Below are positions 3,349 to 40,802 of a stretch of 54,415 nt of DNA, one piece after another (position 1 is the first letter of the stretch; each line of letters starts with the position of its first letter). A program made the position numbers and the translations under genes. The notes beneath the pieces are model-generated. The model was not told where the DNA came from. It did not search any database and worked only from the letters and a program-made list of their open reading frames with translations. Origin of the DNA: a virus; the IMG/VR virus record IMGVR_UViG_3300038455_000034, positions 1-54,415 of that record; one strand, 5' to 3'.

Positions 3349-3746
3349 GACAGTCGCTGCATCTGCTATGGAAACAGCGCGGCCAGAAACCCAAGCAGCT
3401 CGAGGGGCCGGAATGTCCCGGGGAACTGCGCTACGTCTGGGAGTGGTATCTACAGCTCTACTCGAACGAGGTGGCCGCCATCTCGCCCACGGGTGCTGTT
3501 CTGACCAAGCCATTGACCTGGCAGGAAATCGGCGCATGGTCCGAGATGACGGGCACCGTCCTATTGCCATGGGAGGCCGAGCTACTGAGACAAACTGACC
3601 GTGTCCGCCGCGCTGCCCTATCTGGAGTGCAACGAAATGAACACAGCAACCCTAGTCCTGCAGGTCAACAGCGACGGCCTCGTCAAGGCGAAGGAACGCC
3701 AGCTCGCCCTAGTGGAAAGCTCTCAAAAGGTCGAGGCGGCAAGTGA
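3339..3746 (+). CDS. -1 frame extension of the tail chaperone (gpT-like part of a G-T fusion)
   Basis: The -1 frame is open across the gpG stop and encodes protein-like sequence (..LHLLWKQRGQKPKQLEGPECPGELRYVWEWYLQLYS..LTWQEIGAWSEMTGTVLLPWEAELLRQ). There is no ATG/GTG/TTG start of its own. The +1 frame is Arg/Ala junk. The slip site is not determined. Confidence 0.45.
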   Translation, partial: QTLRQSLHLLWKQRGQKPKQLEGPECPGELRYVWEWYLQLYSNEVAAISPTGAVLTKPLTWQEIGAWSEMTGTVLLPWEAELLRQTDRVRRAALSGVQRNEHSNPSPAGQQRRPRQGEGTPARPSGKLSKGRGGK

Positions 3747-6396
3747 GAAGCTGGCGGCTAAGGCTGAGCGTGCAGCAGAGCGCGAATATCAGGCATATCT
3801 GAAGGCAGAGCAGAAGGGAATCGAAGCGCGCCAGCGCGAGACGGCGCAAACTGAGAGAGAGTACCAGAAGCGCCAGGCCGCATACGAGAGAATGTGGCTG
3901 TCAGCTGAGCAGACACGCGCAAGGGCGGAGGCGAAAGAGCTGGCCGCTTCGATGAAGCGCGTCAAGACGGAGGCTAGGGTCGCTGAAGCGGTAACTGCGG
4001 CCAATGCCGCGAAACTGGCATCTGTGCAGCGAGAATTGATGACCGAAGAGCAGCTTATCCGAGCTTCGGAGGCCAAACGCAGAGCCGTTATTCTGGAAAG
4101 CACGGCCGTCACGGAAGCACAGCGCTCTGAGCTGATGCGTCTTAGCGCAGCTAAGACGAACGCCCAGCTCGCCGCGCTGCCGAGCGTCCGTGGTGCCGGA
4201 GGCCTCGCCGGGGCGCTTGGACCAATGGCTGGGATGGTCGGGGGCTTGGCCGGAGCCGCCGGGTTTACCATGGCGGCGCGTGAGGTGCTGAACGTCACGC
4301 GAGAGTTCGACAAGCTCAACGCATCGCTGGTCACGGTCACGGGTAGCCAGCACGCTGCAAACTACGCGTTTGAGGCCCTGCAAGACCTAGCCTTGAAGAC
4401 TCCGTTCACCTTGCGAAGCGCAACCGACATGTTCGTCCAGCTTCGCAACATGGGGCTCGATCCGTCAGTGCGCGCCATGACGGCCTACGGTGACATGGCG
4501 GCTGCTTTCGGAACCAACCTTGACCACATGATGTTGGCGATCGGAGACGCCACGGTCGGCATCATGCGGCCGCTCAAGCAGTACGGCATCATTGCGCATC
4601 AGGAGGGCGACAAGGTCAAGTTCTCGTTCCGTGGCGTGACGACCGAAGTGGCCAGGGATGCGGTCGAGATCGAGAAGTACCTGCTCCGCCTCGCTGAGAA
4701 CAACTTTGCGGGTGCCATGGCCAATCGGATGAAGACGCTCGACGGTGCCATCTCGAACCTTGCGGATGCGTGGGACAAGTTTGCGCTGTCATTCGCTCGT
4801 AGCGGAGCGGAAGACGATATGCGGAAGTTCGTGGAAAGCGTCAGTACCTGGATGGGACATGCGGCTGCGGCCATAGCCCAGCACGGGAAGACAGCATGGG
4901 AGGCGTGGAAGTGGACGGCGAAGATCGCCGGATTCATCCCCAACCCGACGAAGCTCCTGTCCTTCGGTGCAAAGAAATCGGCCGAGGCTATACAGGAAGC
5001 CGACCTGTGGGGAACAGGCGCCGCCCAGAGCTATCAGGAAAAGGCGCAGCAGCAGGAGAAGGAGGCTACTGACGCGCTTGCCAAGTTCCGCCGCGACAAT
5101 GCCGTTCGCTGGGCAGAACAGACCGCCAAGGACATGGCGGAGATCGACAAGTACCTGGGCGGCAAGGAAAAGAAGATCGGAGACGAGGCCAACGAGCTGA
5201 TTGCGAAGGCCGAAAAGCGCATTGAAGATGACCAGGAGAGGCGAGTGGTTGTCAACCGGATCATCGAGAAGGCACAGAATGAGCTGCTTGAGAAGGGCGA
5301 ATGGCCGGATAAGAAAAAGAAAAAACACGGTGAGTATGATCCTGGAATCGCCGAGCCGGAATCAGGATTCGACCGATACCGCGAGATGAAGCGACGGGAG
5401 GTGGACGCTGTCCGCGAAAGCGTCGCCAGGAAAGAAGATTCAGCGCGTGAGTTCTACGAATACAACAAGGCGGTGCTTGAGGCGTCCAACAGGGACGAGA
5501 CCGAGGCACTCAGGCAGAACGAGCTGATATGGGCGGCTCACTTGGCGAAGATCGCCGAGGATAAGCGGAAGGCCAACGAACACGCACTCCGGGAAGAGGC
5601 GTCCTACCGCAAGCGGCTGTGGGAATTCGGCAAGGTCCCATCTGAGCTAGAGATGATTAACCGCAAGTTTGCCGGGCAGCGTGAAGACCTGAACGAGCTG
5701 GTCAGGCGGCGCATGGAGGGTGATCGTTCGAACCCATTCGAGACGCCGGATCAGTTGCAGGTGCAGCGTGACTTGGCAGCAAGATCGGTCGAAATAGAGC
5801 GCGAGCGCATCCGAGAGATCTCGGCTCTGCAGATGCAGTACACGCAGAACGCAATCACTAGCAGTGAGGCTATGTTTGGTAGCCTCGCCACCGCGGCGAA
5901 GAACTGGAAGGGCGAGACGAGCAGAGAATACGCTGCTCTCTTTGCTATCCAGAAGGGCTTCGCTGTCGCAAGCGCCGGCCTCAACATGGCCAAGGCGTTG
6001 TCCGAGGCAAGCGCCGCTTCGCCCTGGTACGCCAAGATCCCGGCCATGGCCTCGGCGATGGCTGACGCGGCCCGCATCGTCGCGATGATCTCGTCGGCAA
6101 ACTACTCGGGCGCCATGGACGCAGGCGGAGACATTCCATACGGCAGCATGGCCCTCGTCGGCGAGCGCCGCCCCGAGCTGGTGACGCGTCCAAGCCTGGT
6201 CGCAGGCCCGGCGCACATAACGAGCGGCGCCGAGACGGCCCGCATGATGTCCGGCGGTGGCGCCGCCCCCGTCGTGAACGTCCGCGTGATGCCGGTGGCA
6301 ACGGATATGAACCGCTACCGCAGCTCTAGTCGCAGCGAGCACGTCATCGGGATGACGATTCAGAAGCACCCCGAGCTTCTGAGGATCGGGGGATGA
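3637..6396 (+). CDS. Tape measure protein
   Basis: 919 aa from ATG 3637 (alternative GTG 3601). It has long coiled-coil segments and a conserved tape-measure core (..LNASLVTVTGSQHAANYAFEALQDLALKTPFTL..). It is the longest gene after the chaperone. Confidence 0.9.
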   Translation: MNTATLVLQVNSDGLVKAKERQLALVESSQKVEAASEKLAAKAERAAEREYQAYLKAEQKGIEARQRETAQTEREYQKRQAAYERMWLSAEQTRARAEAKELAASMKRVKTEARVAEAVTAANAAKLASVQRELMTEEQLIRASEAKRRAVILESTAVTEAQRSELMRLSAAKTNAQLAALPSVRGAGGLAGALGPMAGMVGGLAGAAGFTMAAREVLNVTREFDKLNASLVTVTGSQHAANYAFEALQDLALKTPFTLRSATDMFVQLRNMGLDPSVRAMTAYGDMAAAFGTNLDHMMLAIGDATVGIMRPLKQYGIIAHQEGDKVKFSFRGVTTEVARDAVEIEKYLLRLAENNFAGAMANRMKTLDGAISNLADAWDKFALSFARSGAEDDMRKFVESVSTWMGHAAAAIAQHGKTAWEAWKWTAKIAGFIPNPTKLLSFGAKKSAEAIQEADLWGTGAAQSYQEKAQQQEKEATDALAKFRRDNAVRWAEQTAKDMAEIDKYLGGKEKKIGDEANELIAKAEKRIEDDQERRVVVNRIIEKAQNELLEKGEWPDKKKKKHGEYDPGIAEPESGFDRYREMKRREVDAVRESVARKEDSAREFYEYNKAVLEASNRDETEALRQNELIWAAHLAKIAEDKRKANEHALREEASYRKRLWEFGKVPSELEMINRKFAGQREDLNELVRRRMEGDRSNPFETPDQLQVQRDLAARSVEIERERIREISALQMQYTQNAITSSEAMFGSLATAAKNWKGETSREYAALFAIQKGFAVASAGLNMAKALSEASAASPWYAKIPAMASAMADAARIVAMISSANYSGAMDAGGDIPYGSMALVGERRPELVTRPSLVAGPAHITSGAETARMMSGGGAAPVVNVRVMPVATDMNRYRSSSRSEHVIGMTIQKHPELLRIGG

Positions 6397-33071: not shown

Positions 33072-34370
33072 ATGGACAATTCACAGGACAAGAAACCCGC
33101 AACCACCGACGCCCACACGGGGAGCGGAGGACAGGCTACTGACGAAATCGACTGGGCAGATGACTACCTCCGCGATCTGTGGGAGGTCGCTGCCAAGGCC
33201 GTCACTAATGTAGACCCTGCCTACTGTATGACGCCCGGAGGTGTAAAGGCGGCTGTGCGGGCGGTGCTTGGCGCGATGGGAGCGCCGCGGGGAACGGAGG
33301 CGCCCAGGTCGGAGGCGAGAGACCTTGAGAGCCTGACCAATATCATCGACTGGCTTCGATTGCGCGAGCCATCCGTGGTAACCTCCAGCACTGAGATTGC
33401 CAAAGCCGCTCTCGCCTATGTCGGAGGCGAGCTGGCCCGGGTGCGAAGGGAACTGGCGACCGCTGAGGCCGCTTTGGTGGCATCGGCCAAGGCAACTTCG
33501 GAGCGGCTTGAAAAGGCAGAGACGACGGTAGACAGCCAGGCCGACCAGCTCGCCGCTCTCAAGGCTGACCTCGCCGCCTCCCGCACCGAACGTGACTCTG
33601 CTCGGGACGAGCTTGGCAAGGTGCTCGGATTGCGCGCTGTGGACTTCGCCCACGGTGAGACCGTGCGAATCGCTGAGATGAAAGCCGCGGAGCATGCGAT
33701 GTACTCGACCATCCTGGAAAAAAACACCGAACGCGCGATGAAGGAAGGCTGCCAGAAGCAACTGCGCGACATCGCGGACGCACTCGGCCCCACAGACGGA
33801 AAGCTCGACGACGAAGACGAGGACAACAGCACGTCTGCCAGGATAATTCGCTACTTGGAGGGACTGCGACAGCAGCTCGCCGAAGCCCGCAAGCCGGTGC
33901 AACGTCTCGACGAGGTCGCTGCCCTCCAAGACAACTGGGACAGCTATGGCGGCAAGGCGCCAACGGCAGAGGCGGTCGCGACGGCGCGGCAGATTCTGCA
34001 GTCCACTGCGGCGCCTGTCAGTGGTGGAGGTGTGCAGCTCGACTGGGACAATGGTGACTGTGATATCGAAATCGGGGCTGACGGCAAGATAATCGTCGAG
34101 CCGGCGGAGCCGTTGAGTGACAAGGAAATACTCGCCGTCATTGCCAGTTGGTTCAACCTTGTTAGGCCTCCCGGGATGAGCAATCACGAGCACTTGGTCA
34201 AAGTGGCAGCCGAAGCCCAGCGGCAAAAGGGGGCGAGCCTCGACGTCCCAACAACCGAATTCGTCCGCGCCGTCCGGGCTGCCGTACGCGAGTCGACTGC
34301 GCTAGACGAGCTGGACAAGCGGGTACGCGCTGCCATCGAAATGCTCGATAAAGCGCAGGTGCGGACGTGA
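33072..34370 (+). CDS. Coiled-coil protein of unknown function (432 aa)
   Basis: ATG 33072 follows gagaaagga. It has a long helical middle and a C-terminal ..NWDSYGGKAPTAEAV.. domain. Confidence 0.65.
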   Translation: MDNSQDKKPATTDAHTGSGGQATDEIDWADDYLRDLWEVAAKAVTNVDPAYCMTPGGVKAAVRAVLGAMGAPRGTEAPRSEARDLESLTNIIDWLRLREPSVVTSSTEIAKAALAYVGGELARVRRELATAEAALVASAKATSERLEKAETTVDSQADQLAALKADLAASRTERDSARDELGKVLGLRAVDFAHGETVRIAEMKAAEHAMYSTILEKNTERAMKEGCQKQLRDIADALGPTDGKLDDEDEDNSTSARIIRYLEGLRQQLAEARKPVQRLDEVAALQDNWDSYGGKAPTAEAVATARQILQSTAAPVSGGGVQLDWDNGDCDIEIGADGKIIVEPAEPLSDKEILAVIASWFNLVRPPGMSNHEHLVKVAAEAQRQKGASLDVPTTEFVRAVRAAVRESTALDELDKRVRAAIEMLDKAQVRT

Positions 34371-34377
34371 AGGAGCG
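34357..34377. repeat. 21-bp direct repeat, copy 1 (aggtgcggacgtgaaggagcg)
   Basis: Identical to 35849-35869. It spans a stop/start junction. Confidence 0.95.
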
Positions 34378-35290
34378 GATACCCGACGGAAGCCTGCGGG
34401 GTAGCGTCGAGGTAAATGCAAATGAGTCCTCTGTATGGTCAGACACCGTCGGGATAGCCAAGTTGGCATCAGCAGCACTGAAAGTACCTTTATATCTTCG
34501 CGATGACGCCGAAGCAGAGGCGCTGGCCGCATTGGTGGACGCGTATCAACGATTTGATCCAACGAAAGCATCCTGGACAACCTACGCTTTGCCTCGTGCG
34601 CGCGGGGCAATATTGGATTTTCTCCGTCGCTGGAATCCATTAAGCCGTGGCATGCGCGCCAAAGTCAAGACGGGTCAAATACACGATGTGGTTAGAGTGA
34701 GCGCCGATACCAAGGACCGCTACGGACGCTCCATTCTCGATCAGATCCCTGCCATTGAGGCATCTGAAAAGGACATAATTCATGCCGTGGATAGTGTGAA
34801 ACGAATTTCCTTGCTACCCATGCGTTTACGCAAGGTTATCAAAGCGCGTTTACATGGCAGTAGCATCGCTGAGATTGCCAAGAGCGAGAAGATCCATGTT
34901 ACACGAGTTTCACAACTCATTGGTGAGGCGCTCCATTGGATAAGCGAACTTGACAAATTGAGCCACCATCCCCGCAATATATACGCCGCACGTTGGCGTT
35001 TAAAGATATTGATTGGGCGAGGCCGACGTAAATGCCAGATATGTGGGCAGCCAGTGGGAATAAGCGAGCGCCAAGGCCCCATTTGGTCATGCTCAGATAA
35101 GTGTCGGCGCCGACGCAAACTGGAACGCGACGCCGCCAATAGGCGCGAGCATGCCATCTGCACACAGTGTCGGTACTGTGGGCGTCCATGTGAAACAGGT
35201 AACATCTGCTATGCCCATCGCAAGCGATTGTTAAGAAGTACTGACATGACGGCGGATATTCGCAGTCGCAGTCAAAGGGGCTCGACATGA
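34367..35290 (+). CDS. Sigma-70-family (ECF-sized) sigma factor with a Cys-rich C-terminal extension
   Basis: Region-2-like ..DAYQRFDPTKASWTTYALPRARGAILDFLRR.. and region-4-like ..LRKVIKARLHGSSIAEIAKSEKIHVTRVSQLIGEAL.., followed by several CxxC pairs. Confidence 0.75.
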   Translation: MKERIPDGSLRGSVEVNANESSVWSDTVGIAKLASAALKVPLYLRDDAEAEALAALVDAYQRFDPTKASWTTYALPRARGAILDFLRRWNPLSRGMRAKVKTGQIHDVVRVSADTKDRYGRSILDQIPAIEASEKDIIHAVDSVKRISLLPMRLRKVIKARLHGSSIAEIAKSEKIHVTRVSQLIGEALHWISELDKLSHHPRNIYAARWRLKILIGRGRRKCQICGQPVGISERQGPIWSCSDKCRRRRKLERDAANRREHAICTQCRYCGRPCETGNICYAHRKRLLRSTDMTADIRSRSQRGST

Positions 35291-36068: not shown

Positions 36069-36412
36069 AGAAACCCAGCGAGCCAAGCGTCGACGTCGCC
36101 AAGCTGCCGTTTCGGTCTCGGAATGAATGGCTGTGGCGGTGGGTGTGGAAAGTCGACGTCGGCTCCAGCACGCTCCACAGATTGGTCGGACCAGTGGACA
36201 TTAATTGCGACGCAGGCATAGCAACCGGGACCGCAGGCTGCGGCCTTAAAGGCTCGTTCGAGATGCCAGGTGGCGGCCTCGCACAGGGCGCCCGTCGCTG
36301 TCCTCAGTGCTGCGATGCCGTTGGCGTGGCCCGCGGTCGAGGCGCGCCGTTCAACCACGGGGAGAACGAGCCCGGCTGCCAGGGGCCGGCGAAGGAGAAA
36401 GGGAAGCCATGA
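36065..36412 (+). CDS. Hypothetical Cys-containing protein (115 aa)
   Basis: ATGA overlap (ggaagccATGA). Confidence 0.55.
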   Translation: MKKPSEPSVDVAKLPFRSRNEWLWRWVWKVDVGSSTLHRLVGPVDINCDAGIATGTAGCGLKGSFEMPGGGLAQGARRCPQCCDAVGVARGRGAPFNHGENEPGCQGPAKEKGKP

Positions 36413-36687
36413 TTCCCGACACCCTCACGAAAGAGCAGCTCCACACCCTGCAACACTCGCTCGGCGTCGACCAATACGGCCGAGGAAACCACTACCGCAA
36501 CCGCTACGTGTGTGACCCTGGCGACTCGGTGATCGATTCTCTGGTGGCGGCTGGTCTAATGGTAGACGCGAGCGCGCCTTCATTCTGCGGCGGTATGCAC
36601 TGCTACATGGTCACCGACGATGGCAAGCGCGCGATGTTCAAGCATAGCCCGCAACCGCCGAAGCTGACCAGGTCGCAGAAGCGGTGA
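36409..36687 (+). CDS. Hypothetical protein (92 aa)
   Basis: ATGA overlap (ggaagccATGA). Sequence is protein-like. Confidence 0.6.
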   Translation: MIPDTLTKEQLHTLQHSLGVDQYGRGNHYRNRYVCDPGDSVIDSLVAAGLMVDASAPSFCGGMHCYMVTDDGKRAMFKHSPQPPKLTRSQKR

Positions 36688-36717
36688 AATAGATTCGTAG
36701 AGTCGGGAGCCAAGGAG

Positions 36718-37204
36718 GTTGGTTGCATGCTTATCCGGTTCACACACTCTACAAAGTTGATAGGATTTGAAAATGTCTCAATGGACAAAAAAAGACATTA
36801 AAATTATGTGCAATGCTCTCAGTAGCTTCTGGCTAGTTAACCGTCCACTGAGCTATCGGCATGACGAATGGGAGAGGGCCAAGAATATGGTCATCGCTCA
36901 CTTGGACCAACATAGAGCCGAGATCGTCATTTCCGGCGTCGCCCAACTAGCCAGCATAGCAAGCGACCGTGTTCAAAAGAATCAAGAAACAGCCGACCAT
37001 TTTCTGAACCATCCAAACATCTACGGATCTAGCACCCCAGAAATGGTCGAGCGATTTACCTCGTTAGCCCGAGAGTCGCAACGAGACGTTGACAAGGCAG
37101 CGATCCTCGTAGCGAAGATCCAAGCGGAAGGGCTACCTCCAGAAGTGATCAACTTCAATCCCACAATCAATTAGGTGTGTCAACCGGATAAGCATGGTTG
37201 GTTG
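36718..37204. mobile_element. Candidate miniature insertion: 471-bp low-GC cassette with 22-bp terminal inverted repeats and an 8-bp flanking direct duplication
   Basis: TIR-L 36726-36747 catgcttatccggttcacacac is the reverse complement of TIR-R 37175-37196 at 21/22. gttggttg occurs at 36718-36725 and again at 37197-37204. Confidence 0.45.
36773..37174 (+). CDS. Hypothetical protein (133 aa), passenger of the TIR-bounded cassette
   Basis: ATG 36773 (track start TTG 36767). Visibly AT-richer codon usage than the neighbours. Confidence 0.6.
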   Translation: MSQWTKKDIKIMCNALSSFWLVNRPLSYRHDEWERAKNMVIAHLDQHRAEIVISGVAQLASIASDRVQKNQETADHFLNHPNIYGSSTPEMVERFTSLARESQRDVDKAAILVAKIQAEGLPPEVINFNPTIN

Positions 37205-37452
37205 GAGCTTTCTCGAGTGGCTGAAGACAGACGAGGGTAGAAAGTGACCCCCGCCCTCTCCACCTGCGCCGGCGGCATCCCGAGCGATGCGCACCTGTGC
37301 CCGTGCTGCAAACTGCGGTCAAGGTATTCGAGCGCGGTTTGGTTTGCCACCTGTTCACCGTGCGCTCGCGTGACGCTCCTGACATCGATACCGAGGCTGG
37401 TCATGGTGCGCACCATCCGCCACTTCCGCGATCTGGGCAAAGGCGGGTGACT

Positions 37453-37699: not shown

Positions 37700-38059
37700 A
37701 TGAGCATCCATGGATATTGGATCGATCACGATAACTACCCATTCGATGAGCATCGCGAGCAGGGTCGCGAGGATGCCCGCTATGATAGGCAACGCGACTA
37801 CGACCTCGCGGACCAATTTTCGGAGCGCGGGCGCGCCTACAATGAGGGATTCGACCGCGAGGTGCGACGCAAGGAAGAGGAACGTGCCGAGCGGTACCGC
37901 GAAGAAGAACGGCAAGCCGAGGCGGCTTCCCGACGGCATCGCGAGCAGTTTGCCGAGGACGACGCCTATCAGGAACAGTTCGCTGGCGAGCAGTATCCCC
38001 AACAGCCTGACTGCGAACCCGAGTCCCAGCCGGGCGGGCCACTGGACGAGGAGCGGTGA
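37700..38059 (+). CDS. Highly charged (Glu/Arg/Asp-rich) protein (119 aa)
   Basis: Strong RBS aaggagg. Confidence 0.6.
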   Translation: MSIHGYWIDHDNYPFDEHREQGREDARYDRQRDYDLADQFSERGRAYNEGFDREVRRKEEERAERYREEERQAEAASRRHREQFAEDDAYQEQFAGEQYPQQPDCEPESQPGGPLDEER

Positions 38060-38718
38060 TGCCACTTCGGGACAACATCGACCAGAAGGCCCGCGCGATG
38101 TCGCTCGGCTACCAGCGGGAGCACGCAGACCCAGAGAAGCGCGCCTGCCGATGGTGCGGCGGACCCGTGCCCAAGGGCCGCCGGTCGTGGTGTAGCGAGG
38201 CATGCGTCCACGAGGCGCTGATGCGCGCCCATCCAGGCTACGCGCGTTCCCAGGTGGAGAAGCGAGATCACGGCATCTGCGCAGTCTGCGGCCTCGACTG
38301 CGGACGATTGGAGAGGCTGGTAGATCGGCTGCTGAGGTTGTCCGAGTTGGTGGTGTGGGTGCGCACGGACACCGGCGCCACGGTGAGCGAATACTGGCGC
38401 GAGATTCCCAGTGTGCAGCTCAAGCAGGTGCCCCACCCGGCGGCCAACAAAGCGCTGCGAAACCTGGAGCTGTTGCTGGTCATCCTCGGGTTGTGGGCGG
38501 GTCACGACCTGCGCAAGTGGACCTGGCACGCCGTCCACGGCATCGGCAGACGAGACAGGCTACCACTCAAGCATTCGCTTTGGCAGGCTGACCACATCCG
38601 TCCAGTGGTCGAGGGTGGCGGCGGGTGCGGTCTCGACAACTATCGCACGCTCTGCCTTCGCTGCCACAAGCGCGCGACGGCCGCGCTTGCGACGAGGCGT
38701 GCTGATGCCATTCGCTGA
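38059..38718 (+). CDS. HNH endonuclease with N-terminal zinc ribbon
   Basis: ..WQADHIRPVVEGGGGCGLDNYRTLCLRCHKR.. is an HNH motif, preceded by CRWCGG...CSEAC. Confidence 0.8.
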   Translation: MPLRDNIDQKARAMSLGYQREHADPEKRACRWCGGPVPKGRRSWCSEACVHEALMRAHPGYARSQVEKRDHGICAVCGLDCGRLERLVDRLLRLSELVVWVRTDTGATVSEYWREIPSVQLKQVPHPAANKALRNLELLLVILGLWAGHDLRKWTWHAVHGIGRRDRLPLKHSLWQADHIRPVVEGGGGCGLDNYRTLCLRCHKRATAALATRRADAIR

Positions 38719-38944: not shown

Positions 38945-39244
38945 ATGGACGACATCTTTGCACTTCAGGGAGACCAGATTATTCGCAAGCTCGACAAACG
39001 CATCGCCGGGGAACTCGAACCGGCGAGGGACCTGGTGATTGCTGGCAGCCACAGTAGCCCGCACATCATCGTCGGGCGCTGCTACACGCGCATGGAGCGA
39101 GATAGGAGGCTCGTCCGCGTGTCGCGCGCGACGATCATCAAGCATGCGGACCGGCATCGGCCCACGAAACTCATCAAGGGAGACTACGAAATTTATCCCC
39201 AGCGCGAGCGCGGCGGCGACGGTGACCGGGCCGTGGAGGACTGA
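38945..39244 (+). CDS. Hypothetical protein (99 aa)
   Basis: RBS caggagag. Confidence 0.6.
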   Translation: MDDIFALQGDQIIRKLDKRIAGELEPARDLVIAGSHSSPHIIVGRCYTRMERDRRLVRVSRATIIKHADRHRPTKLIKGDYEIYPQRERGGDGDRAVED

Positions 39245-39245
39245 C

Positions 39246-40802
39246 ATGGCTAAGAAGCTCTATCACATGACCCCGGCACACAGAAGGCGCCTCCACGACT
39301 GGTCCGATAAGGTGCTGGCCAACGCGCGCAGAACAGACCCCATGTCGGCCGAGGATCGCGCGAAGGCCGAGGGCGCCATTCGCGGCATCTACAACAGCAT
39401 CGGCCTCGGCGGAGGGAAGGTGCGCGTGGTCTTTTGCGCATCTCCTGACGTCGCCAGAATTGCTGGCCGCCTAGCGTTTTCCGCGCGCTGGCTACGCGAG
39501 CATCCCGAATCCCAGCGCAAGATCTTCGGCCGTCTCCTGCGACCGGCAGAGCTAAGGGATGCGCTCCGCCGAGCCGCGACTATGTTGGTGGTGGGGACCA
39601 GGTCTCGCATGAGCGATTTGGAGCCGAAAGTGCTCCCTCTCGTCCGAGCTGCCGCTGCCGCTGCCGCTGCCGCTGACGCTGCCGCTGCCACTGCCGCTGC
39701 CGCTGCCACTGCCGCTGCCGCTGCCGCTGCCGCTGCCACTGCCGATGCCACTGCCGCTGCCGCTGACGCTGCCGATGCCGCTGCCGATGCCGATGACGCT
39801 GACGCTGCCGCTGACGATGCCGCTGCCGCTGCCGCTGCCACTGCCGCTGCCGCTGCCGATGCCGATGCCGATGCCGCTGCCGATGCCGATGACGCTGACG
39901 CTGCCGATGACGATGCCGCTGCCGCTGCCGATGCCGCTGCCGCTGCCGATGCCGCTGCCGCTGCCGCTGCCGCTGCCGCTGACGCTGCCGATGCCGATGC
40001 CGCTGCCGCTGCCGCTGCCGATGCCGATGCCGCTGCCGCTGCCGATGCCGCTGCCGCTGCCGCTGCCGCTGCCGCTGCCGATGGGATCGTCGTGGCATGC
40101 ACCTACTACTTCGTGCGGGCGTATAGGCGATATTGGTGGAGGCGCTTGCAGGGCGGAAACCTCCGCACGTGGCATCTAGTCAGGTGCGGGTTCTTTCTCC
40201 ACGTCGCCAAGCTCGACATCAACTGGCGTAGCTATCCCCAGTACGAAGCTGCGGCGTTTGCGTCGGGTCCGCGGGTCATGTATCGCGACTTTTGTCTGGT
40301 CTCCGATCGTTGCTCCGTGTTGCACAACGATGAACGAAATCGGCTGCACTGTGAGACTGGCCCGGCCATCGGGTGGAGAAATGGATCCTCCATGTACTAC
40401 TGGCACGGCGTCCGGGTGCCGAGGCGATTGATCGAGAGGCCTGGTTCCTACACCTCCGACGAGTACAAGAGACTCCCGGCGGAACAGCGGCGCGCTCTTG
40501 GTGAGCATCTGGGATGGGACAAGGTGCTTGCGATGCTCGGATCGTCGTCGGTTGACGACGCGATCATCGACGGCTTGGCGTATGAGCTTGTCAGGTGCTC
40601 CGATCACTCACAATACCTACGCATGCAGAGCCCGGTGCTGCAAGACGGGTCACAACCATACTATTTGGAACCCGCGCATGAGGATTCGAAGACGGCGGCT
40701 GGAGCACGCAAGTGGCGATTGGCTCGCGAGCCTAGCGGGAGATGGTGGACGCCAGGTGAGTGTGACGAGAATCCAACTATCAAGATCGGCCAGCACACGT
40801 GA
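39246..40802 (+). CDS. DUF6745-like protein interrupted by a ~144-residue poly-Ala/Asp tract
   Basis: ATG 39246. The N-terminus ..TDPMSAEDRAKAEGAIRGIYNSIGLGGGKVRVVFCASP.. and C-terminus ..LHCETGPAIGWRNGSSMYYWHGVRVP.. are recalled family signatures. Confidence 0.65.
   Translation: MAKKLYHMTPAHRRRLHDWSDKVLANARRTDPMSAEDRAKAEGAIRGIYNSIGLGGGKVRVVFCASPDVARIAGRLAFSARWLREHPESQRKIFGRLLRPAELRDALRRAATMLVVGTRSRMSDLEPKVLPLVRAAAAAAAAADAAAATAAAAATAAAAAAAAATADATAAAADAADAAADADDADAAADDAAAAAAATAAAAADADADAAADADDADAADDDAAAAADAAAAADAAAAAAAAAADAADADAAAAAAADADAAAAADAAAAAAAAAAADGIVVACTYYFVRAYRRYWWRRLQGGNLRTWHLVRCGFFLHVAKLDINWRSYPQYEAAAFASGPRVMYRDFCLVSDRCSVLHNDERNRLHCETGPAIGWRNGSSMYYWHGVRVPRRLIERPGSYTSDEYKRLPAEQRRALGEHLGWDKVLAMLGSSSVDDAIIDGLAYELVRCSDHSQYLRMQSPVLQDGSQPYYLEPAHEDSKTAAGARKWRLAREPSGRWWTPGECDENPTIKIGQHT
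39648..40080 (+). repeat. About 72 hexanucleotide units (gctgcc/gctgac/gatgcc/actgcc) encoding Ala/Asp/Thr low complexity
   Basis: Read directly. It produces open shadow frames in several other frames. Confidence 0.95.

Follow-up and report, generated by a model that had tools for sequence, protein, structure and literature searches.

A probable mobile insertion cassette with ISAcr1-like, IS1595-type ends in a tailed phage genome

We analyzed a 54,415-nucleotide stretch of viral DNA (positions 1 to 54,415 of the IMG/VR record IMGVR_UViG_3300038455_000034, hereafter the window) which contains a 471-bp element, at 36726-37196, that is very probably a non-autonomous mobile insertion cassette (MIC) derived from an ISAcr1-like insertion sequence (IS) of the IS1595 family. 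A first-pass annotation of the window had proposed a transposon-type insertion based on terminal inverted repeats (TIRs), a flanking duplication and a break in base composition, and had remarked that the element was the size of a miniature inverted-repeat transposable element (MITE) yet was filled by a passenger gene. That core proposal was supported by the copies of a family with the same ends at other sites and by the empty site in related phages. The precise duplications and the empty site indicate that the element arrived by transposition, and its presence accounts for both a truncated gene and an island of low GC content in the window.

The element and its empty site

The features described in the first-pass annotation, namely the 22-nt TIRs (matching at 21 of 22 positions), the octamer, the 133-aa open reading frame (ORF) and the drop in GC content, were all present at the positions given for them. 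The target motif and the arm consensus referred to in the following list are those of the family described in the next section.

36718 to 36725, unstranded: left copy of the target-site duplication, GTTGGTTG, which fits the target motif GWWNNWWC at 7 of 8 positions.
36726 to 36747, plus strand: left TIR, the cargo-proximal end, CATGCTTATCCGGTTCACACAC, which agrees with the consensus of 70 arms.
36748 to 36772, plus strand: conserved leader between the TIR and the cargo start, with a putative AGGA ribosome-binding site at 36762-36765.
36773 to 37174, plus strand: passenger gene, 133 aa, predicted to be all-helical; the only sizeable ORF inside the element.
37175 to 37196, minus strand: right TIR, GTGTGTCAACCGGATAAGCATG (reverse complement CATGCTTATCCGGTTGACACAC), directly after the cargo stop codon TAG (37172-37174).
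37197 to 37204, unstranded: right copy of the target-site duplication, GTTGGTTG.

A repeat search returned the two arms as 22 nt long, 95% complementary and 427 nt apart, by far the best inverted repeat between 36000 and 38000. With up to three mismatches allowed, the 22-mer occurred at just these two sites in the window, and none of 100 dinucleotide-preserving shuffles contained any match. The sole mismatch between the arms is a C/G difference at arm position 16, which is the one naturally variable position in the family consensus from 70 arms, and both arms are therefore consensus-perfect. The left arm is near-identical to the arms of the transposase-bearing elements L011, L024, L017 and L027 (one L017 arm deviates at position 14) and is close to the ends of ISAcr1. 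The GC content inside the element is 0.47 compared to 0.61 in the flanks and 0.609 in the whole window, in keeping with the AT-rich composition, relative to the flanking genes, that had been noted before, and the low-GC passenger is of foreign origin. An intact, conserved ORF makes up 402 of the 471 bp.

The element had been thought to lie in an intergenic gap. This proved incorrect, as the insertion point falls within a conserved phage gene of 118 aa, at its 3' end, and the parts of this gene can still be recognized in the window.

36409 to 36687, plus strand: 5' part of the host gene, 92 aa as now read, with 118-aa homologues P0016 (85% identity) and P0017 (72%).
36688 to 36725, plus strand: former coding sequence of the host gene past a premature stop codon and up to the insertion point, …NRFVESGAKEVG, in frame and conserved with …KRFVDSGAKEVG of the relatives.
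37197 to 37247, plus strand: detached 3' end of the host gene, its final 17 codons, VGWSFLEWLKTDEGRK followed by a stop codon, which align with …VGWSFPEWLKTEDGRR of the relatives.

The homologues of the upstream gene are 118-121 aa in length with 72-85% identity, and alignment with the relatives showed that the AAGGAGG preceding the element is coding sequence (K-E-V) and not a Shine-Dalgarno site. The next ORF starts with a GTG (37244) that overlaps the stop codon of the 17-codon remnant.

The empty-site sequence corresponding to the window would be GCCAAGGAGGTTGGTTGGAGCTTTC. No match to the exact empty-site 22-mer was identified in IMG/VR, and the empty site was reached instead via protein homologues of the flanking gene. 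In the contigs L056, L057, L058 and L059, blastn alignments to the window stopped exactly at 36725 and tblastx alignments picked up again at 37197, with both pieces being contiguous in these contigs. Deleting 36726-37204 made the window colinear with L056, L058 and L059 across the junction, as had been predicted for removal of the element, and each of these three contigs has a single octamer at the junction, GTTGGGTG or GTCGGGTG. The relatives have an uninterrupted ORF through the site (…TRSQKRWKRFVDSGAKEVGWSFPEWLKTEDGRR…) with a stop codon a few residues on, so that related phages with an empty site, which the first-pass annotation had suggested seeking, do exist. In the window the same region reads …TRSQKR, a stop codon and NRFVESGAKEVG, then the cassette, then WSFLEWLKTDEGRK and a stop codon. 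Because the relatives have the octamer once, the earlier concern that it might be a coincidental piece of GGTT-type simple sequence is settled in favor of a true duplication.

An exact-protein look-up of the flanking gene returned solely the same phage, in an independent Logan assembly (L048, from SRR12953417) that matches 5.3 kb of the window at 100% identity, cassette included. The identity of an independent assembly argues against an assembly artefact; L048 gives no polymorphism, and no polymorphic empty site was found within the same phage population. The premature stop codon in the host gene is a TGA at 36685-36687, 13 codons upstream of the insertion, where all the relatives have TGG (Trp). 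As the stretch between the TGA and the cassette is still well conserved, the sequence suggests that the TGA is a recent secondary mutation.

The right TIR terminates in an outward-facing ATG (37194-37196) that shares its reading frame with the host-gene codons cut off by the insertion (MVGWSFLEWLKTDEGRK followed by a stop codon). All family arms end in CATG and thus every insertion offers an outward ATG at both of its ends. It is speculative, but such an ATG might re-establish translational coupling to the downstream gene.

A family of elements with IS1595-type ends

The 22-mer CATGCTTATCCGGTTNACACAC was scanned for exact matches in IMG/VR viral contigs, JGI metagenome contigs and one-genome-per-species bacterial and archaeal genomes (596 Gb). 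Further copies of the TIR with different flanks, which the first-pass annotation had proposed looking for, were identified in 38 stretches of IMG/VR viral contigs, at least 120 loci in JGI metagenome contigs and 5 loci in the bacterial and archaeal species genomes (185,579 of them bacterial). The viral and bacterial figures, 38 and 5, are raw match counts from one exact 22-mer and not a normalized census. When mismatches were allowed, the arms almost always occurred as convergent pairs. After removal of duplicates, 126 different elements with both flanks were obtained among the matches listed, ranging from 184 to 2276 bp with a median of 488 bp. Among the same matches, perfect 8-bp direct repeats flank 88 of the 126 elements, representing 83 distinct insertions, where the chance of a perfect 8-bp duplication is 4^-8, or 1.5e-5, per element.

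The arm consensus derived from 70 arms of 35 elements is CATGCTTATCCGGTT-N-ACACAC, with positions 1-15 at least 93% conserved. The duplicated octamers have 42% GC compared to 52% in their context and are weakly palindromic, following GWWNNWWC. Since the flanks of family members span from 40% to 67% GC, the ends evidently travel widely. Up to four elements were found in one 13-kb stretch, and several cassettes are arranged head-to-tail with just the duplicated octamer between them (L167 3437-4025; L160 2185-2550; L138 450-459). In L167, for example, the order is GAATGAAC, an element at 3446-3719, GAATGAAC, an element at 3728-4017 and GAATGAAC again. Such arrays, which resemble integron cassette arrays, could grow by repeated insertion, because each insertion regenerates a preferred target beside itself.

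The ends had not been recognized in the first-pass annotation as those of any described IS or MITE family. They do belong to one, as longer siblings with the same ends encode IS1595 transposases and the ends of ISAcr1 are near-identical. Elements of 1.3-2.3 kb with these ends encode proteins of 337-357 aa, either alone (L015) or together with one passenger (L011, L017, L024, L027 and L004). These proteins match Pfam PF12762 DDE_Tnp_IS1595 (E 1e-33 to 1e-35) and PF12760 Zn_ribbon_IS1595, as well as NCBIfam NF033547 ‘IS1595 family transposase’ (E 1e-55, above the cut-off), and have in common the motifs VE[VL]DE, V[IV]TD, IHLVFSNLK and NEFTFRFNRR. Among the matches listed, 19 metagenome loci have an IS1595 transposase gene. 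The nearest annotated relatives of the sibling proteins, at 57-60% identity, are named ‘IS1595-like element ISAcr1 family transposase’ and are located on plasmids of Acidiphilium, Rhizorhabdus and Tardibacter.

The copy of ISAcr1 on the Acidiphilium plasmid pACMV6 is 1080 bp in length and its transposase is 59.6% identical to that of a sibling. Its ends are CTTGCCTATCCGGTTGAC…/…GTAACAACCGGATAGGCAAG with GAATCAGC duplicated on both sides. The ends CTTGCCTATCCGGTTGAC agree with the family consensus CATGCTTATCCGGTTGAC at 16 of 18 positions, so that the TIRs of the two are nearly the same; both have 8-bp duplications, the siblings have a zinc-ribbon plus DDE_Tnp_IS1595 transposase, and a similar CTAGAT-type leader follows the left end of ISAcr1. 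The window element differs in having no transposase, in carrying an unrelated passenger and in its phage location, the annotated ISAcr1 being on plasmids. Within the IS1595 family, the ISSod11 subgroup has ends of the form nnnGcnTATC, the catalytic signature D-D-H-x6-K followed by E-x3-R-x2-R and a length of 1.0-1.1 kb. The present ends, CATGCTTATC, are of this form, and the motifs shared by the sibling transposases may correspond to the ISSod11 signatures, so that the elements might belong to this subgroup.

No transposase was identified in the window when six sibling transposases were searched against all of it by tblastn (best E 0.054), and a tblastn search of cultured phages with a sibling transposase gave no match. 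For the 8-bp duplications and the definition of the IS1595 family we followed the summary in PMC8101967. Compared to an autonomous IS1595 element, the window element has the 8-bp duplication and homologous TIRs and no transposase with the DDE_Tnp_IS1595 catalytic domain, which in autonomous elements is usually accompanied by an N-terminal zinc ribbon. As it encodes no transposase, the window element is non-autonomous.

Evidence for the movement of cassettes without a transposase came from siblings. A 675-bp transposase-less cassette with a 194-aa ORF is present in L003 and related viral contigs, where its duplication is ATATGGAT. The same cassette is present at 566-1240 of L053, in the chromosome of Ferrovibrio xuzhouensis KCTC 42182, with the duplication TAACAGAT and an interior that is 78% identical throughout. 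Pfam matches showed that the L053 cassette adjoins genes for electron-transfer flavoprotein (ETF beta/alpha), 3-hydroxyacyl-CoA dehydrogenase and argininosuccinate lyase; this copy is considered chromosomal because of these housekeeping neighbors, and a PHROGs search around it identified nothing and no obvious prophage. In addition, the passenger of the transposase-bearing L011 (phrog_12600) recurs in a transposase-less cassette in L019. Together, these comparisons indicate that transposase-less cassettes move and that they derive from transposase-bearing ones.

The passenger gene, its leader and the phage

The first-pass annotation had recognized no transposase-like motif in the 133-aa ORF, and this was upheld, since searches of Pfam, PHROG and NCBIfam gave no significant match and no transposase signature. 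The profile and structure searches that had been recommended for the ORF were partly informative. They yielded no profile or fold match, with Foldseek of the model against PDB and BFVD giving nothing better than E = 0.3 and generic helical-bundle matches only, but they did produce a confident three-helix model. This AlphaFold2 model, from a 12-sequence alignment, has a pLDDT of 94.5 and consists of a short helix and a long helical hairpin. The most that can be said from the model is that the passenger is likely a small soluble helical protein, of a kind that often acts by binding another protein.

Eleven homologues of the passenger were identified, with 33-58% identity, all of them unnamed. 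Those examined (L039-L047, L050, L060 and L061) are in phage-like contigs with no TIR pair enclosing any of them. They occupy at least six phage contexts, tightly packed among other genes, and their neighborhoods vary: in L039 and L050 endolysin genes are adjacent, and in L043 and L046 the surroundings are small early genes or genes of nucleotide metabolism. Because these homologues sit in phage contigs without enclosing TIRs, the comparison indicates that the passenger is an ordinary phage gene that was captured, and not a mobility protein.

Family arms do occur near some homologues. In L049, which has the closest cargo homologue, plus-strand arms at 491 and 1287 bracket a 111-aa gene and this homologue, and the second arm is fused to the 3' end of the homologue. 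The two arms form no proper pair and have no matching duplications. In L060 (1229-1520) arms are situated just downstream of the passenger homologue. The arms of L049 (491-1800) and L060 (1229-1520) might represent intermediates of gene capture. The contigs L039-L042 (1734-2972; cargo homologue P0004) have a 412-aa DDE_Tnp_1 (IS4-type) transposase with a weak SWIM match, which is unrelated to IS1595.

The 25-nt leader in front of the passenger belongs to one of two leader types found at cargo-proximal ends, …ACACAC-TCCA..AAATCGATAGGAG/T-N6-9-ATG, in which an AGGA(G) ribosome-binding site precedes the start codon by 6-9 nt. It aligns with the leaders of the transposase-bearing L011 and L024 and of eight cassettes with unrelated cargo, with the ATG at a similar distance. 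In about 25 of the 32 ends inspected, the passenger starts 33-59 nt inside one arm. In transposase-bearing elements the passenger is usually between the leader-side arm and the transposase gene, and in L017 it comes after the transposase gene. The window leader also has a sigma-70-like match, TTCACA (36739-36744) and TAGGAT (36761-36766) with a 16-nt spacing, which scores 9 of 12 and has a TG upstream of the -10 element. These signals may function as a promoter and a ribosome-binding site.

The cargo of several siblings could be named. It includes a Lar restriction alleviation protein (PF14354, E 1e-9), two DNA methyltransferases (phrog_56 and phrog_799), a PAPS-reductase-like protein (phrog_424), DUF551, DUF7352 and a weak ASCH match. 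The remaining sibling cargos are PHROGs without function or orphans.

The window represents a tailed phage, with genes for a tape measure, tail proteins, portal, large terminase, primase-helicase, a sigma-like factor and an HNH endonuclease. Its portal is at most 45% identical to those of Variovorax, Pseudomonas and Stenotrophomonas siphophages, and it has no close cultured relative. Megablast of positions 30-44 kb of the window against public phage records gave no match, and distant-mode blastn and tblastn searches of 50,697 phage records with the element and the ORF it contains identified none either. Based on this absence of matches among public phage records we consider the phage to be novel and dropped the idea that the element is one of the MPMEs, which are ultra-small mobile elements of mycobacteriophages. 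Where homologues of the interrupted gene are named, they belong to Novosphingobium, Sphingomonas and Sphingobium, the TIR-bearing bacterial genomes are mostly those of Alphaproteobacteria, and the ISAcr1-type plasmid copies are mainly alphaproteobacterial; based on these observations, an alphaproteobacterial host is likely.

The cassette is located in a block of small rightward genes between a sigma-factor-like gene (34367-35290, phrog_351) and the HNH endonuclease gene (38056-38718). The block appears to be a regulatory, early-type gene region, in which accessory genes commonly accumulate. Further downstream, an ORF at 39039-40802 contains, at 39648-40080, 72 tandem GCTGCC hexamers (88% matches, 70-74% GC). 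The tract encodes Ala/Asp/Thr-rich low complexity sequence in this 587-aa plus-strand ORF, with an Ala/Ser-rich ORF opposite.

Interpretation and significance

Under the MIC interpretation, the TIRs would be recognized by a zinc-ribbon plus DDE transposase supplied in trans, with the host, a prophage or a co-infecting phage contributing the autonomous sibling that encodes it. The strands of a weakly palindromic GWWNNWWC target, rich in A/T, would have been cut with an 8-bp stagger, and gap repair would then have produced the GTTGGTTG duplication, and insertion 17 codons before the end of the 118-aa phage gene would have truncated that gene. The passenger would be expressed within the rightward operon from behind a leader with a ribosome-binding site and possibly a promoter, and may confer a benefit. 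Mobilization of window-type cassettes in trans is suggested indirectly by the presence of the 675-bp cassette at two sites with different duplications.

Several observations weigh against this interpretation or parts of it. About 30% of the paired arms, among the matches listed, are without a perfect duplication, although these are probably rearranged or mis-paired arms. No second copy of the window cassette was found in the databases searched, in which the closest protein is 58% identical, or among the metagenome loci listed, and its own mobility is thus deduced from its siblings. The nonsense codon upstream of the insertion means either that the insertion happened some time ago or that decay of the gene had set in before it. 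The promoter-like site has a modest score of 9/12 and its TAGGAT overlaps the position of the TAGGAG ribosome-binding site of the siblings, and the leader may consequently provide translation signals only. Neither the phage nor its host has a known source of the transposase. Lastly, we know of no biochemical characterization of IS1595-family enzymes, and cut-and-paste and replicative transposition are not distinguished here.

Some of these observations are also what would be expected if the element were a real IS1595-derived insertion that is no longer mobile and is merely inherited, with the passenger as neutral baggage. There is just one copy of the cassette in all the databases searched, the window has no transposase and the disrupted host gene already has a nonsense codon. 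We nevertheless regard an inert element as unlikely, as both arms match the consensus at every conserved position, the duplication is perfect, and the ORF is intact, with a very confident predicted fold and the invariant residues of its family. In addition, the GC content has not been ameliorated towards that of the host phage and transposase-less siblings occur at independent sites. Exchange of modules by homologous or illegitimate recombination at shared promoters or operators, as in T4-type promoter-stem-loop cassettes, would be in keeping with the -35-like TTGACA/TTCACA in the arms, with the conserved leader on the cargo-proximal side and with the ability of several cassettes to adjoin each other. 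This explanation is highly improbable given that the repeats are inverted rather than direct and that the 83 distinct insertions, among the matches listed, have perfect 8-bp duplications of differing sequence, which recombination at repeats cannot produce. Moreover, these ends also occur around IS1595 transposase genes and on a named IS, and the empty site of the relatives is base-precise.

It would be very surprising if the element were autonomous, with its 133-aa protein acting as a new kind of transposase or mobility factor, a role that has been suggested in the case of MPMEs, even though its size and layout (about 450 bp, inverted repeats and one ORF of about 130 aa, in a phage) are like those of MPME1 (PMC3029335). 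Homologues of the 133-aa protein occur in at least six phage contexts without TIRs, sibling cassettes with the same ends hold dozens of unrelated ORFs, and the model, a simple bundle of three helices, shows neither a nuclease-like nor a DDE-like fold. There was also no similarity to the collection of 50,697 phage records, which includes MPME-bearing phages, and MPMEs make no 8-bp duplication (PMC3029335). In view of the GGTT-like octamer, and of the theoretical possibility that the arms pair within a transcript, we also considered a chance inverted repeat next to simple sequence, or a stem that acts at the RNA level without DNA mobility. Either is scarcely conceivable when none of 100 shuffles matched, hundreds of copies with different cargo and duplications exist elsewhere, the octamer is single in the relatives and the arms are 427 nt apart around a protein gene.

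The MIC interpretation is in line with known systems. MICs such as MIC231 of the Bacillus cereus group have IS or transposon ends around one or more passenger genes, have no transposase and are presumed to be mobilized in trans, with a single set of ends occurring around various cargos; Tn3-derived MICs of Xanthomonas are reportedly a further example. The window element resembles them in having the ends of a known IS, a passenger unrelated to transposition, no transposase and a parent-type duplication at a site that is empty in relatives. It differs in its IS1595 parent, in belonging to a mainly phage-borne family, in having a single gene directly behind a conserved leader and in the head-to-tail arrays of its family. 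With MITEs it shares small size (471 bp), TIRs, a target duplication and dependence on a transposase in trans, but MITEs are non-coding by definition whereas the window element is nearly filled by an intact gene. Integron cassettes are likewise small, promoter-poor, single-gene units with diverse cargo that form arrays; they have one attC site, use a tyrosine recombinase and make no duplication, whereas the window element has two inverted IS ends and an 8-bp duplication.

The inverted repeats of MPMEs are 11 bp in length. MPME1 and MPME2 resemble the window element in being phage-borne, about 440-470 bp in size and polymorphic among related phages, with inverted repeats and one ORF of about 125-135 aa (PMC3029335). 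However, MPME insertions are of 439-440 bp with 6 bp of unexplained origin at IR-L and, as noted, no 8-bp duplication (PMC3029335), and each MPME type has one ORF, whereas the window family has interchangeable cargo, an identified transposase family and no sequence similarity to MPMEs.

While MICs are a known type of element, a phage-wide family of such cassettes is apparently undescribed, as no description of IS1595-derived cassettes in phages, or of the present family, was found in the literature. The interest of the window element therefore lies in the pattern of its family, namely interchangeable cargo behind a common leader, a concentration in phage contigs and the formation of arrays (L167 and L160). 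We tentatively raise the possibility, in which we have less confidence than in its negation, that a phage-adapted IS1595 lineage acts as a gene-cassette shuttle, in which one pair of ends and a built-in leader for translation, and perhaps for transcription, take up interchangeable single genes and insert them at GWWNNWWC sites of phage genomes that differ greatly in GC content, building arrays through regeneration of the target and exchanging cassettes with host chromosomes. If this is correct, the shuttle would provide phages with a functional analogue of integron cassettes that is based on transposons, and its cargo would include functions against restriction, for example Lar and orphan DNA methyltransferases. 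It would also be an exception to the poor tolerance of insertion sequences reported for phages, in whose genomes IS are considered rare (PMC3429520).

The gain and swapping of small accessory genes by phages is mostly attributed to recombination. Here, one set of IS1595-type ends bounds more than 100 different small cassettes, mostly of one gene, in environmental phage contigs. If the family is centered on phages, as the counts suggest, it would represent a testable mechanism by which accessory and counter-defense genes move between unrelated phages and hosts, and its ends would mark out a catalogue of candidate phage accessory genes.

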